From contig CAWCYI010000006.1 in NCBI GenBank assembly GCA_963799845.1, positions 576,001-640,000 on the forward strand: 64,000 bases of DNA, in the 5' to 3' direction. Source of the stretch: an uncultured Nitrososphaerota archaeon (lineage in GTDB: Archaea; Thermoproteota; Nitrososphaeria; Nitrososphaerales; CADDZS01). Below are positions 41,525-48,974 of the stretch, in pieces; the first letter of the stretch is position 1, and each line of letters starts with the position of its first letter. Both the position numbers and the translations under genes were made by a program. The notes under the pieces were generated by a model that worked only from the letters and a program-made list of their open reading frames with translations, was not told the DNA's origin and searched no databases.

Positions 41525-41633
41525 TAGCAATAGAATTAGCCAGAAGAGCTTGAAACGAGCTCTTCGGTACGCAGAATTGCATCCCCGTGTAGAACAGGGC
41601 AAAAATGGCATAATAAATCAATGAAACTCACAC
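41525..41633 (+). repeat. Copy A of a duplicated ~110-nt structured non-coding element
   Basis: 47/57 identity to 48867-48923 plus 24/31 in a second block; hairpin AAGAGCTTG-AAA-CGAGCTCTT at 41544-41564. Confidence 0.8.
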
Positions 41634-41814
41634 GGGCCTTCGTTATTCGAAGAAGGTACAGGAGAACAAAAGTTGAGGGAGACCTTTCCCAGTTGCCTCG
41701 CATGCTTCAACTGGACTTTGATAAACTCTCTGTTGCGATTGAAATTACTCCTAGGACCTCAACTAATTATGGAAAAGGAATATACCGGATTTGGCCGTGA
41801 TGTGATCAGACTTA

Positions 41815-42150
41815 ATGGCCGACATAACCGTTCGATATTTTGGAATGCTTCGCGAGATAGTGGGCAAGAAAAGTGAAATTGTTACGATTGAAGATTTATC
41901 GAGTGGAGCAGATCTGCTCAACTCGATATCAAACGCTCATGGGAAGAAATTCAGAGAATTTCTCTTCGATTCTGAAGGTAAAATAAGGCTAGGGCTGGCT
42001 TTTGCCGTTAATGGCTCCTCGGTTCAAAAATCTACTCTGTCGAGGACGAGATGTGAGAATATCTCAGAATTTGTAATCCTGCCTCCGATAAGTGGGGGCA
42101 GTGATTGTGTTGCCATTGTACGTTTCAATGACAGGAACTGGCAGATGTAG
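41815..42150 (+). CDS. MoaD/ThiS-family ubiquitin-like sulfur carrier (SAMP-like) with C-terminal extension
   Basis: ITVRYFGMLREIVG...FAVNG...VILPPISGG followed by 16 further residues. Confidence 0.85.
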   Translation: MADITVRYFGMLREIVGKKSEIVTIEDLSSGADLLNSISNAHGKKFREFLFDSEGKIRLGLAFAVNGSSVQKSTLSRTRCENISEFVILPPISGGSDCVAIVRFNDRNWQM

Positions 42151-42208
42151 TCTAAATCATCCATGAATGTTTTTTTAGGTCGGAAAAGATTCTCGTTTTT
42201 CGTTCTCT

Positions 42209-42541
42209 TTGAGTAACAATCTGAAAGCGCAGAAGGGAGATACTGTCTCCATACATTACCTCGGAAAATATGTCGGCGGTCAGGTCTTTGACACATCGAT
42301 TGAGTCTGAAGCCAAGAAGAGCGGATTGCACAGCCCGGCCAGGGATTACAAGCCATTGCAAGTCAAGCTAGGTGCTGGGCAAGTCATCCAAGGATTTGAA
42401 GAAGCCATTTTGGGAATGGGCATTAACGAAGAAAAAGAGGTAACAATCCCTCCGGAGAAGGCCTACGGCAAGACAGGAAGACACCCGATGGCCGGCAAGA
42501 CTCTCGTTTTCAAACTCAGAGTTACGAATATCAAAAGATAG
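42209..42541 (+). CDS. FKBP-type peptidyl-prolyl isomerase
   Basis: GDTVSIHYLG...FDTS...GQVIQGFEEAI...IPPEKAYG...HPMAGKTLVF. Confidence 0.92.
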   Translation: MSNNLKAQKGDTVSIHYLGKYVGGQVFDTSIESEAKKSGLHSPARDYKPLQVKLGAGQVIQGFEEAILGMGINEEKEVTIPPEKAYGKTGRHPMAGKTLVFKLRVTNIKR

Positions 42542-42605
42542 ATCCTTTTAGAATAATGTCAACGCCCTGGCCGGATTTAAAGCAGTCCAAAATGAGACTG
42601 GACCG

Positions 42606-44179
42606 TCAGGAGTAGACTGTCTGGCTCTGTTCCCTTAGAAACTGCTGGAGATAGTAGGGCCCTCCAGCTCCCTTCCCGCTCGAACCACTCCTTTTCCAGC
42701 CGACAAATGACTGGTTTCCGACCATGGCGCCCGTTGTAGAACCGGAGACTCTATTCGCATAAACTACCCCGGCTTGCACTCTAGCAAAAAATTCGCCGAT
42801 CTCCTTTCCATCTTCAGAAAATATCCCGGAGGTAAGCCCATAATCCACATTGTTTACTCTCTTTATTGCATCGTCTCAGCTCCGTGTATGATTCAATTGT
42901 GAGGATTGGAACAAACATCTCCGTTTTCACGAGATTGCTATTTCTTGGAATATCGACAACAATTGTTGGCTCCACGAAGTAACCCTTGGACAACTCTGCA
43001 TTCTTCAGTATACGACCTCCACTGGCGATTCGAGCTTCTTTTCGGGCTTCGTCTACAAAACTCTGATAATTCTTGTAGGCGGCTTCGTTGATCAGAGGGC
43101 CGAGAAATACTGGCCGGTCGGCAGGATTTCCGATTTTGAGTTCGGCAGTTTTCAATACTAGCTGCCCAATGAATTCGTCTTTTACCTTTTCATGGACATA
43201 AACGCGCGAGCATGCACTGCATTTTTGGCCTCCGAAACCGAAGGCTCCGCGCATCACTCCTTCCACCGCCTTCCCAACATTCCCCTTGTCGCTAACGACG
43301 GTTGCATTCTTGCCGCCCATCTCTGCTATGAAGGGCCGAGGTAGTTTCGCTTCGAACTCTGCAAGGGATCTTGAGCCGACGTCCCACGATCCAGTAAAGA
43401 CAACTCCCTGGACATGGGGATTTTCGATGAGCTCCTGCTCCCACGGTAGATCCGGATCCGGTTACAAAATTGTAAACTCCCACGGGGATTCCGGCTTGCC
43501 CCATTATTTTGCAGAGCTCGTATGACAGCAAAGGTGTATCTGAAGCGGGTTTCAGCACTACCGTGTTTCCGGCTATGCTCGCCCCGGCGCTCATTCCCGT
43601 CGCGATCGCAAATGGAAAATTGAAGGGAGCAATGACGCCCCAGACTCCGTAGGGCTTCAGGATCGATTTTGTACTCTCGTTCGGGAGACTGTGCCCCATT
43701 GGTATTTCAAATCCTTTGTTTTGCTCTAACTGGTCCGCGTAGTATCGAATGAAATCTATTCCCTCATCGACATCAGCCATGGCCTCGGTCCTCGTCTTTC
43801 CGTTCTCGAACGTCATCTCCGCTGCAAGCTTGAATTGTTGCCCAGATGCGAGATCCGCGGCTTTGCGATACAGCCTTACTCGTTCTAAGTACGGGGTCAT
43901 TGACCACGTCTCAAACGATTTCTTCGCAGCATTAATTGCGTGCTTTGCGTGCTCTCTGGTTCCTTTTTGGAACCGCCCTAAAACGAGTTCAGTATTGCAG
44001 GGTGAAACATCGTCAAAAGTTCCCTCTATCGAGAAAACCTCTTCTCCCCCGATTATCATCGGATAGGTTTTTCCAAAATCCTTCTGGACCTCTCCTATCG
44101 CAGTCTCGTATTCTTTGTGAAACTCTTCTTCGCTTCCGGATAACTTGAATCTTGAGAATGTGTTTTCGTTTTCGAACAT
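42606..44179 (-). CDS. Aldehyde dehydrogenase, 1-pyrroline-5-carboxylate dehydrogenase-like (apparent +1 frameshifts at ~43438 and ~42876)
   Basis: IAPFNFP, KPAS, VFTGS, EMGGKN, GQKCSACSR, EMFVP, YGLT and GGPYYLQQF motifs spread across three ORFs. Confidence 0.88.
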
Positions 44180-47260: not shown

Positions 47261-47281
47261 GGTACTGACACCTACAATCAG

Positions 47282-47809
47282 TTACATCTGCTGGGCGCTC
47301 TTCCCGCCCTCTGACTGCATCTTCTTGGCTGCTGCCTTGATCGATTTTACAATGTTCACGTAACCCGTGCAGCGGCAGAGATTTCCTTCAATTCCCCTTC
47401 GGATTTCATCCTCGGTAGGATCTGGATTTCTCTGCAGGAGGAAAAGACCAGAGATCAACATGCCGGGCGTGCAGTATCCACACTGCAGACCGTGGTTTTC
47501 CCAAAATGCCTCCTGGATCGGATGAAGCTTATCACCATCTGCAAGGCCTTCAACCGTTGTAATGTCTGCGCCCTGGGCCTGAATCGCGAGAACCATGCAA
47601 GACTTTACAGTCTTGCCATTCATGAAAATCGTGCAAGCCCCGCAGTGACCCGTATCGCATCCGATGTGAGTTCCGGTGAGGTTCAACTCATCTCGGATAA
47701 AATGAACCAAGAGCAGTCTTGGTTCAGCGACGCCGCTGTACTCTTTGCCGTTGATCTTGCATTTGACCTGGACCAGGTCTGACCTTGTTGCTGATTTCAT
47801 CATTTCCAA
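47282..47809 (-). CDS. [2Fe-2S] small subunit (CoxS-like)
   Basis: [26 protein letters not shown]. Confidence 0.95.
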
Positions 47810-47814
47810 TCTAC

Positions 47815-48678
47815 CTACTTTAGCCTCGTCATTGCCATCTTGATTGTTCTTCTCGTAAACACTTTCATCATGTCCAGTCTGTATTCCCTGCTTCCATGCA
47901 TGTCGGACGGTGGATCAGCTCCTTCGTTAGCTCTCTCAGCGGCGTCTGCGATGGTCTTGTCATCCAGCGTCTTGCCTTTGAGATAGTTCTCGACTGCCTT
48001 TCCCCTCAAGGGTCTCGGACCGACGGCACCGAATGCGATTCGGATATCCTTGCAAACATTACCAGGATCGACTGTTAGGACAACACCGGTACCGACGATT
48101 GCAAAATCGCCTTCGCGTCTGCTGTGCTTAATGTAAGCCGAGGCAGAGTTTGGCGGAAGGTAGAGAAGCCGGATTTCAGAAAGGACTTCGTCGTGCCCGA
48201 CCGCAGTCTCAAAAAGATCCTTGAAAAATTCAGTAGCCGGAACGATTCTCTGTCCCTTACCGTTGTGAATTACAAATCTAGCGTCCAGCGCCGTTAGAGC
48301 AGTAGGCAGGTCTGCCGCGGGGTCTGCGTGGCACGAACTTCCCCCAATGGTCCCCTTGTTTCGAATCTGCTGATCTCCAATCTTGCTGGCGGCATCTGTA
48401 AGAATCGGGAAAAGCCTCTTGATCGATTGATTATGCTCAATGATGTCATGTATCGTCAGGGCACCTATTCCGAGATACTCCTTGTCTTCCCTTACGTATG
48501 AAAGATCTTGAAGATTCGAAATATCAACCAAAGCCGATGGAGCGGCAAGTCTTAGTTTCATGAGAGCTAGAAGACTCTGACCACCGGCGAGCACCTTTGC
48601 ATCCTCATTATCATGCAAGAGCTGTATTGCTTCGCCGATTGACGAGGCTGAATAATAATCAAATTTCTTTGGGGTCAT
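47815..48678 (-). CDS. FAD-binding medium subunit (CoxM-like)
   Basis: [34 protein letters not shown]. Confidence 0.95.
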
Positions 48679-48866
48679 TGAGAATGTTTTGAATCGAGGT
48701 CGCTCAAGAATATTTCAATATATCTGAGCGTATTATTCGAATATTGTCGGCTGCGACAAATCTTCACCTAAATCTTAACTGAGCTGAGTAGCCGGTTGAA
48801 GTAATTGTTTTGAATATTGTTTCTCAATCCGTTGGGAAAACCGCCACGTAGTTCGTCAATTTACAC

Positions 48867-48974
48867 TAGCATTAGAATTTCCCAGGAGAGCTTGAAACAA
48901 GCTCTTTAGTAGACAGAATTACAACGTTGGTTGGACTCGCGAGAAATCGCGTAATAAATCACCGAAAGTGAAAC
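48867..48974 (+). repeat. Copy B of the duplicated ~110-nt structured non-coding element
   Basis: Homologous to 41525-41633; hairpins GAGAGCTTG-AAA-CAAGCTCTT, CGCGA-GAAA-TCGCG and TCAC-CGAAA-GTGA. Confidence 0.8.

Follow-up and report, generated by a model that had tools for sequence, protein, structure and literature searches.

Introduction

[quoted passage not shown] SM1-SM4 of Sulfolobus and others are named there as archaeal MITEs (PMC10969869). Here we report an intergenic repeat of an uncultured soil archaeon of the order Nitrososphaerales, two copies of which, A and B, lie in a window of 64,000 nt (GenBank assembly GCA_963799845.1, contig CAWCYI010000006.1, positions 576,001 to 640,000 of the forward strand; positions below are counted within the window). 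Copy A stands between genes of molybdenum cofactor (Moco) biosynthesis and copy B beside a molybdoenzyme operon. An earlier description of the window made from its letters alone (the sequence-only reading) had noticed the pair and proposed a Moco-responsive RNA, a shared promoter with an operator, or the remnant of a mobile or guide-RNA element. We find it likely that A and B belong instead to an intergenic repeat that is non-coding, present in many copies and restricted to one lineage, which is old, MITE-like and modular, has a promoter- or operator-like core, and stands at the molybdenum loci by chance.

The repeat resembles Correia-type MITEs most, in being small, dispersed and intergenic and in carrying promoter-like sequence, and it is also like mosaic repeats such as BOX. 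Correia-type elements, in the outline published for them, are bacterial and have sigma-70-type promoters, clear terminal inverted repeats, an integration host factor (IHF) site and RNase III processing, whereas the box of our repeat is predicted to resemble an archaeal transcription factor B recognition element with a TATA box (BRE/TATA-like), its inverted repeat is weak, and no rule for its target duplication emerged. In E. coli, BIMEs are built from interchangeable short modules, to which the recurring hairpin module and the alternative 5′ arms of our repeat may be compared. Pneumococcal BOX, another such mosaic, is mentioned in the same review (PMC10969869). Both BOX and BIMEs are bacterial and unrelated in sequence to our repeat, in which the order and number of modules are less regular and the promoter-like box lies within the unit. 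REPINs, as they are outlined in the literature, share with the repeat the hairpins, the long vertical persistence at orthologous sites and the genome-specific sequence types, but each is an inverted doublet of REP sequences, and the Y1 transposase serving them is encoded by a single-copy gene that they flank. In the host genome no Y1 gene is flanked by the repeat, both Y1_Tnp genes lying in 2.8-kb tnpA-tnpB elements without the repeat at their ends, and our unit measures 250-330 nt and contains a non-palindromic conserved block. Archaeal MITEs are non-autonomous, multi-copy and intergenic, and have recognisable parent insertion sequences with matching inverted repeats. Our repeat is likewise non-autonomous, multi-copy and intergenic, but no parent was found for it in the host genome and its copies are old and fixed.

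The literature searched held no prior description of elements of this kind from the group; a census of prokaryotic MITEs, in its main text, mentions neither Nitrososphaera nor Thaumarchaeota nor Thermoproteota, and its supplementary lists could hold some. A previously undescribed repeat family in soil Nitrososphaerales is a modest but real addition.

Copies A and B belong to a dispersed repeat family

The host genome (G000) is a metagenome-assembled genome (MAG) of 4.6 Mb in 9 contigs, 86.7% complete with 4.9% contamination. It was compared with fragmented relatives (G002, G003, G004, G006, G007 and G008), among which G007, an unpublished genome, served only as a second example. In a repeat search of the window, copies A and B formed the top direct-repeat family. 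They are co-oriented and align over 62 nt (41520-41581 with 48862-48923, 81% identity) and again over 31 nt (41603-41633 with 48944-48974, 77%), as MAFFT also aligns them; their likeness is not due to chance, since BLAST with copy A against the genome returned copy B at E 2.4e-11. The details given for the pair were accurate: the stem reads AAGAGCTTGAAACGAGCTCTT in copy A and GAGAGCTTGAAACAAGCTCTT in copy B, AGAATT flanks it on both sides, TAATAAATCA is invariant between the two, and the copies begin 166 nt from the moaC ATG (41359) and 189 nt from the start of the coxM-like gene (48678). The extent of about 110 nt was an underestimate. Homology continues about 100 nt further to the left, up to TTTTCAGGTCTGCGGGTAC, and about 100-200 nt further to the right, via AGGTC..CAGGTAC..GAAGACCTGCGGGAAAT, so that the copies cover the intervals listed in Table 1.

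The pair also has many relatives. Copy A used as a BLAST query found 23 further places in its own genome at E<=6.5e-9 and 22 short matches to the hairpin only, and an nhmmer profile built from the copies gave 22 hits of at least 116 bits, which we call near-full copies and which include A and B, plus 9 weak fragments. A covariance model of the 91-nt repeat core (R1), run on 151 genomes of the order, matched in five, all of one family (24 matches in G000, 17 in G006, 15 in G003, 6 in G002 and a single weak one in G008); the other 146 genomes, among them three of the same genus (58-85% complete), gave no R1 match. Apart from the host genome, a single species-representative genome, a Nitrososphaerales MAG, had exact core matches, and a pattern scan of metagenome contigs added 14 loci. 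When short-read contigs from soil metagenomes are aligned to the window, their depth rises about 10-fold at the element (51.9, compared with 4.5-8.7 in the neighbouring bins). Viral contigs held no match to an exact 20-nt motif, and blastn found none in plasmid and phage collections.

The repeat is not tied to molybdenum genes. When the neighbouring genes were tabulated they proved heterogeneous (M42 peptidase, KaiC, BirA, ABC ATPase, proline, glutamate and alanine dehydrogenases, RNA polymerase B and methylmalonyl-CoA mutase among them), and 19 of the 22 near-full copies adjoin genes unrelated to molybdenum. Copies occur in both orientations, four of them between convergent genes, and no more than about 11 of 22 have a divergent gene on their 5′ side. 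Mild clustering was also seen: four neighbouring pairs are at most 15 kb apart, where a rough estimate expects about 1.5 by chance. These are A and B (7.3 kb), C4:1772931/1778514 (5.6 kb, inverted), C4:1714811/1723526 and C6:1051083/1066063; the C4:1.65-1.89 Mb region is also clustered.

Anatomy of the element

Alignment of the copies resolves a typical element of about 250-330 nt into five parts. The left end is TTTTCAGGTCTGCGGGTAC with a CAGGT/ACCTG hairpin, discernible in 13 of 22 copies. It is followed by one of several alternative 5′ arms (class 1 in nine copies, A and B included, class 2 in eight, others in five), then by an almost invariant hairpin with TTCGGTACGCAGAATTGC, by a short palindrome that varies by subfamily and by genome, and by an almost invariant BRE/TATA-like box that leads into a fast-evolving 3′ part with the end GACCTGCGGGAAAT. 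The right motif GACCTnCGG is present in 13 of 22 copies, copy A lacking that form, and both end motifs can be seen in eight copies, where they lie 230-261 nt apart. Over all 22 copies the distance between the ends is 230-333 nt, and open frames within it are not conserved. Copy A is enclosed by 7-bp direct repeats, CCTAGGA; as chance alone should give about one copy in four a comparable 7-mer match between its flanks, they are a candidate target-site duplication only.

The 17-nt hairpin is not confined to this family. With up to two mismatches it has 81 matches at 69 loci of the host genome, also within two larger repeat families; it often recurs at 30-nt spacing, and it is present in at least three repeat families. 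Because the same module returns in other, larger families, we regard the repeat as part of a mosaic, module-built system. The two larger families (examples are C4:125001-125270 and C4:1453395-1453744, with 61 and 93 BLAST hits) contain the hairpin module, spaced by 30 nt, together with a palindrome module of the GGGGCCCC type and a box, ...GCAGAAAA..TATAAGAATCAATGG, that is related, and judged by these letters they look related to the family of A and B.

A core more conserved than the neighbouring genes

Conservation was compared by region between 10 ortholog pairs and among the paralogs within G000. The hairpin with TTCGGTACGCAGAATTGC is 92% identical between orthologs and 86% between paralogs, and the A/T-rich box 90% and 88%. 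The palindromic segment that separates these two blocks falls to 52% between orthologs and stands at 71% between paralogs, and the 3′ part is at 64-69% and about 60%, respectively. Flanking genes, at 79-87%, are less well conserved than this core, which measures about 60 nt. From these differences between regions we conclude that two blocks are under purifying selection, that the palindrome evolves in concert within each genome, and that the rest drifts. The palindrome differs in type between orthologs in at least 6 of the 10 pairs. Its majority type is CCCCC-N10-GGGGG in G000 and GCGCGATCGCGC-like in G006, G002 and G003, and orthologous copies of two lineages carry unlike types, each matching the majority of its own genome.

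Insertion, age and mobility

Empty sites were found in relatives. The moaC-moaD spacer measures 151 nt in G003 and 483 nt in G000, a difference of 332 nt that we treat as equal to the 333 nt of copy A, and site A is empty in G002, G003 and G004. The coxM-dnaG spacer is about 330-360 nt shorter in G002 (253 nt) and G007 (296 nt) than in G000 (583-657 nt), site B being empty in both, and at one site occupied in G006 the matching spacer of G000 is about 300 nt shorter. The spacers of the empty sites are too diverged to align, so exact junctions cannot be read from them. Empty sites together with the dispersal of the copies support a mobile origin, as in the third proposal of the sequence-only reading.

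For 10 of the 22 near-full copies, and for the truncated copy C6:1642560, an ortholog bearing the element exists in G006 or in metagenome contigs; locus L086, beside moaC, is the ortholog of copy A. Five ortholog pairs are collinear through the element at 79-85% identity, and paralogs are 57-85% identical to one another (median 71%). As these orthologous sites are shared with G006 or the metagenome contigs, the element must have spread before G000 and G006 split and has hardly moved since. The comparison shows that the spread through intergenic DNA took place in an ancestor of part of the genus, with vertical inheritance at fixed sites ever since. Short, non-coding, dispersed copies (n = 22) and empty sites in relatives are properties that the repeat shares with MITEs, and vertical inheritance at orthologous sites is one that it shares with REPINs; no autonomous relative with matching ends, as expected for a MITE, was found among the insertion sequences of G000.

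Two candidates for such a parent were rejected for their unrelated ends, an IS630-like element (terminal inverted repeat TAACCTGGCCGACATAA) and a tnpA-tnpB element. The former is an IS630-family insertion sequence of 1128 bp with a TA target (e.g., C6:1051221-1051778). A 186-residue fragment of its transposase is found with 100% identity at 18 places of G000, one of these matches being in two pieces, and comparison of six copies along their full length showed no difference, so that a recent burst seems likely. An IS630-family copy is inserted within the 5′ arm of the repeat copy C6:1051193. The tnpA(Y1)-tnpB element has two copies (C6:727000-733000 and C4:748600-754600), 93% identical over 2.8 kb, and the tnpB frame of both is interrupted by TAG.

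The promoter-like box and the native promoters

The box of the element, GGAAAAYNGCATAATAAAT, was likened to the native boxes GGAAAAGGAATATAC upstream of the moaD-like gene and CATAATAAC upstream of tRNA-Trp. Nine tRNAs were predicted with aragorn under default settings, too few for a promoter model. The native boxes of moaC and of the coxM-like gene lie 38-45 nt from the gene starts, and the box of the element is about 250-270 nt away from them. Outside the elements the native boxes are intact, and those of moaC and the moaD-like gene are conserved in G002, G003 and G004, where the site carries no element; the copies at the molybdenum loci landed between promoters that were already there and have stayed intact.

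These observations divide what had been proposed as a shared promoter with a palindromic operator. In kind, a promoter with a palindrome is plausible, given the BRE/TATA-like character of the conserved box and the palindrome next to it. A promoter shared by the molybdenum genes it is not, because moaC, the moaD-like gene and the coxM-like gene keep native boxes that are conserved in relatives without the element.

Interpretation of the repeat

In the explanation that we favour, a MITE-like repeat of old standing, the constrained core would act at the DNA level, as a predicted promoter with an adjacent dyad-symmetric protein-binding site. The copies might accordingly be described as small mobile transcription units or regulatory cassettes, and either gene conversion or co-evolution with the protein that binds it may keep the palindrome uniform within each genome. 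The DNA-level reading draws on the inversion of the hairpin loop in 3 of 22 copies, on folding scores that are equal on both strands, and on the lack of covariation, all of which are detailed below. If the box is a working promoter, the copies offer natural test cases for the seeding of archaeal promoters and operators by mobile DNA, and they would also matter for the annotation of intergenic transcription in these genomes.

Several results weigh against this explanation. No target-site duplication is consistent across copies: direct repeats at the flanks are chance-level 6-7-mers at varying offsets, save at copy A (7 bp) and at C3:55768 (10/11 bp). The terminal inverted repeat is weak, the left end TTTTCAGGTCT agreeing with the reverse complement of the right end ATTTCCCGCAGGTCT at about 13 of 17 positions with a 4-nt indel, as judged by eye, and each terminus is discernible only in part of the copies, as given above. 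Neither an autonomous parent element nor a transposase with these ends was found in G000. Transposition has been almost absent since the split of G000 and G006, and the genes next to the copies are less conserved than the core; the repeat is therefore unlike a purely selfish, decaying MITE, and this points to a function at the level of the host. No usable BRE/TATA model was obtained, either by expectation maximization on 700 upstream regions or by 6-mer enrichment, and the box was judged by its likeness to a few native boxes. The core hairpin neither supports nor excludes a role as RNA, because it is near-invariant and hence uninformative. Finally, 2 of the 7 coxM-like (PF00941) genes of G000 have a divergent copy about 200 nt upstream, where about 0.03 would be expected by chance in a post hoc estimate. 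These are the window gene at 47815-48678 and a gene at C4:1496033, whose copy is kept in G006. Together with the moaC site they remain a hint of non-random placement. The association was seen at none of the 7 coxM-like genes of G003 and none of the 3 of G002. The idea that the two coxM-adjacent copies are sister copies was rejected, as B is not especially close to the other.

Alternative explanations

The copies could be about 20 genes of small non-coding RNAs (sRNAs), each with its own BRE/TATA promoter, an alternative that we consider unlikely. On the + strand the RNA would start about 25 nt past the box and span the variable 3′ part; on the - strand it would span the palindrome and the conserved hairpin block. 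The purifying selection on box and hairpin block extends to the four copies between convergent genes, which have no neighbour in need of a promoter, the copies are inherited vertically as genes are, and many have 4-7 consecutive T at their + strand end, although the run is not universal and is missing in copy A. The folding z score is about -3 in 4 of 6 copies but about 0 in the other two, both strands fold equally well, and only the hairpin is common to the folds. RNAalifold on 30 copies gave no consensus fold (-0.52 kcal/mol). Pair counts for the core hairpin and two 3′ hairpins, with 500 shuffles as control, gave no covariation (a score of 0.082 compared with 0.084 in shuffled alignments, 289 of the 500 being as high; 69.7% paired cells compared with 69.0%). 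A + strand RNA would moreover lie in the part downstream of the box, which is the least conserved. The sequence-only reading had seen selection on RNA structure in the fact that both differences between the A and B stems become G-U pairs on the + strand only. This does not hold throughout the family, in which the loop and its closing pair are inverted in 3 of 22 copies of G000 and in 1 of 8 of G006, giving C-A on the + strand. An Rfam scan of positions 38000-52000 on both strands at E<=10, the Moco motif included, returned only three unrelated chance hits.

Other RNA-related ideas were rejected as well. One 5′ arm contains GTTTCAATCC...TTGAAAC-like strings reminiscent of CRISPR, and there are no arrays in the genome (no 14-mer recurs at least four times at 45-95 nt spacing). 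For a C/D-box RNA, no canonical boxes were seen by eye and there was no Rfam hit. As antisense targets, 11-12-mers of the conserved block occur elsewhere in the genome at chance level.

Rather doubtful is the more far-reaching possibility that the repeat is an archaeal counterpart of vertically inherited, domesticated repeats, with some 20 fixed copies serving as stand-alone transcription units or regulatory cassettes whose palindromic, operator-like segment has been swapped genome-wide. The occurrence of CCCCC-N10-GGGGG in one lineage and of GCGCGATCGCGC in others, even at orthologous sites, fits co-evolution with one trans-acting DNA-binding protein. If true, soil Nitrososphaerales would have a dispersed regulon or a family of sRNAs that was built by a transposon, and genes for aerobic dehydrogenases and amino-acid catabolism might be among those it touches.

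Very unlikely is the narrow form of the promoter proposal, by which a shared minus-strand promoter and operator co-regulate moaC and the cox operon as one molybdenum regulon. The box does read TTTATTAT on the minus strand, towards moaC and coxM, with the palindrome next to it, and copies are enriched at coxM-like genes (2 of 7). The BRE-like GGAAAA, which is rich in purines, is found on the box's plus-strand side, however, and moaC and coxM have their own conserved boxes at close range, kept in element-free relatives as well, while that of the element is far from the starts. Only about half of the copies have a divergent 5′ neighbour, and the coxM association is missing in G002 and G003.

We give very little credence to a remnant of an IS200/IS605-type element that would comprise a tnpB 3′ end and an omega-RNA scaffold, as in a PATE-like derivative. 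As with IS200/IS605 elements, the two ends of the repeat have similar hairpins (CAGGT-N11-16-ACCTG) that are oriented alike, and about 13 tnpB genes occur in the genome along with two genes for Y1 transposases. The likeness to TnpB omega-RNA goes no further than hairpins near the ends: there is no match to the model, and no copy adjoins tnpB. Housekeeping genes, or in one case an unrelated IS630 insertion, stand upstream of the copies in place of any tnpB-like frame; three repeat-family queries, compared by BLAST with the sequences 3′ of 14 tnpB loci, had no match at E<=0.01; the sole tnpA-tnpB element, present in two copies, has unrelated ends; and at 17 element-bearing loci in other genomes and metagenomes, the 10 neighbouring frames scanned included no tnpB. 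The frame ending in ...ELARRA*, which had been compared with a TnpB C-terminus, has 31 codons, and upstream of nine common residues A and B are unlike. The mobile part of that proposal is supported, as said, and its TnpB part is not.

A structured RNA that responds to Moco or molybdate and controls Moco biosynthesis and molybdoenzyme genes is refuted by the many scattered copies beside unrelated genes, a criterion that the sequence-only reading had itself set, and is contradicted by relatives that keep the molybdenum cluster without the element (G002, G003 and G004, the last without any copy at all). In its favour are the copies beside moaC/moaD and at 2 of 7 coxM-like genes; relatives have retained the one beside moaC and one of those at coxM-like genes. 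Copies A and B run divergently to moaC and coxM, however, 166-189 nt off and outside their leaders. The family shows no covariation, and the Rfam scan at E<=10 matched neither the Moco riboswitch model (RF01055), which the repeat recalls only in the nearness of two or three copies to molybdenum genes, nor any other relevant model. A tempting false lead is thereby removed: there is no archaeal Moco riboswitch or molybdenum operator here.

Features of the window

Table 1. Features of the repeat copies and their surroundings in the window
Feature	Position	Strand	Remarks
MoaC gene	40907-41380	-	Pfam; ATG at 41359
Native promoter-like box of moaC, TAATTATT	41396..41403	-	Outside the element; conserved in G002, G003, G004 (element-free here)
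CCTAGGA direct repeat, candidate target-site duplication	41410..41416 and 41750..41756	.	Flanks copy A
Copy A, whole element, 333 nt	41417..41749	+	Between 7-bp direct repeats; left arm and 3′ part align with other copies
Left-terminal hairpin TTCAGGT...ACCTGAA within TTTTCAGGTCTGCGGGTAC	41424..41453	+	Terminus motif in 13 of 22 copies
Hairpin H1 of copy A, GAAGAGCTTG-AAA-CGAGCTCTTC	41543..41565	+	Six core pairs kept in 27-30 of 30 copies
Conserved block TTCGGTACGCAGAATTGC	41563..41580	+	Nearly invariant, 30 copies
Variable palindromic segment of copy A	41581..41606	+	CCCC-loop-GGG type; GCGCGATCGCGC-type palindromes instead in relatives
A/T-rich box of copy A, GGCATAATAAATCAATG, BRE/TATA-like	41607..41623	+	Likeness to native boxes upstream of moaD and tRNA-Trp
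Poorly conserved 3′ part, AGGTAC...GACCT, right end ...GCGATTGAAAT	41624..41749	+	Orthologs 64-69% identical
Native BRE/TATA-like box of the moaD-like gene, GGAAAAGGAATATAC	41771..41785	+	Outside the element; conserved in G002-G004
ThiS/MoaD-like gene	41815-42150	+	Pfam
CoxG, CoxL, CoxS and CoxM-like genes	44376-48678	-	Pfam; coxM-like start at 48678
Conserved promoter-like box of the coxM-like gene	48707..48724	-	Outside copy B; conserved in G002, G006, G007
Copy B, left boundary approximate	48772..49022	+	Most diverged copy, 116 bits; last letter of the right motif, GGACCTCCGG, at 49022
Hairpin H1 of copy B	48885..48907	+	Positions 6-15 pair with 19-28 of 48880-48969
Palindromic segment of copy B	48925-48947		
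A/T-rich box of copy B, GCGTAATAAATCACCG	48948..48963	+	From the A/B alignment
Toprim (DnaG-like) gene	49369-50709	+	Pfam

Between the two copies, the aldehyde dehydrogenase gene (42814-44179, minus strand) is broken into two frames. In the best-holding run, short-read contigs are one base short at 43434, exactly where the Pfam match breaks, and the same contigs are one base short at 40529, within a MoCF_biosynth gene; both frameshifts are therefore probably assembly errors rather than marks of pseudogenes. Inside the CoxS-like [2Fe-2S] gene, at 47323-47623, all four metagenome runs show a spike in depth with many variant letters, most likely a conserved stretch that is common to other organisms in the samples.

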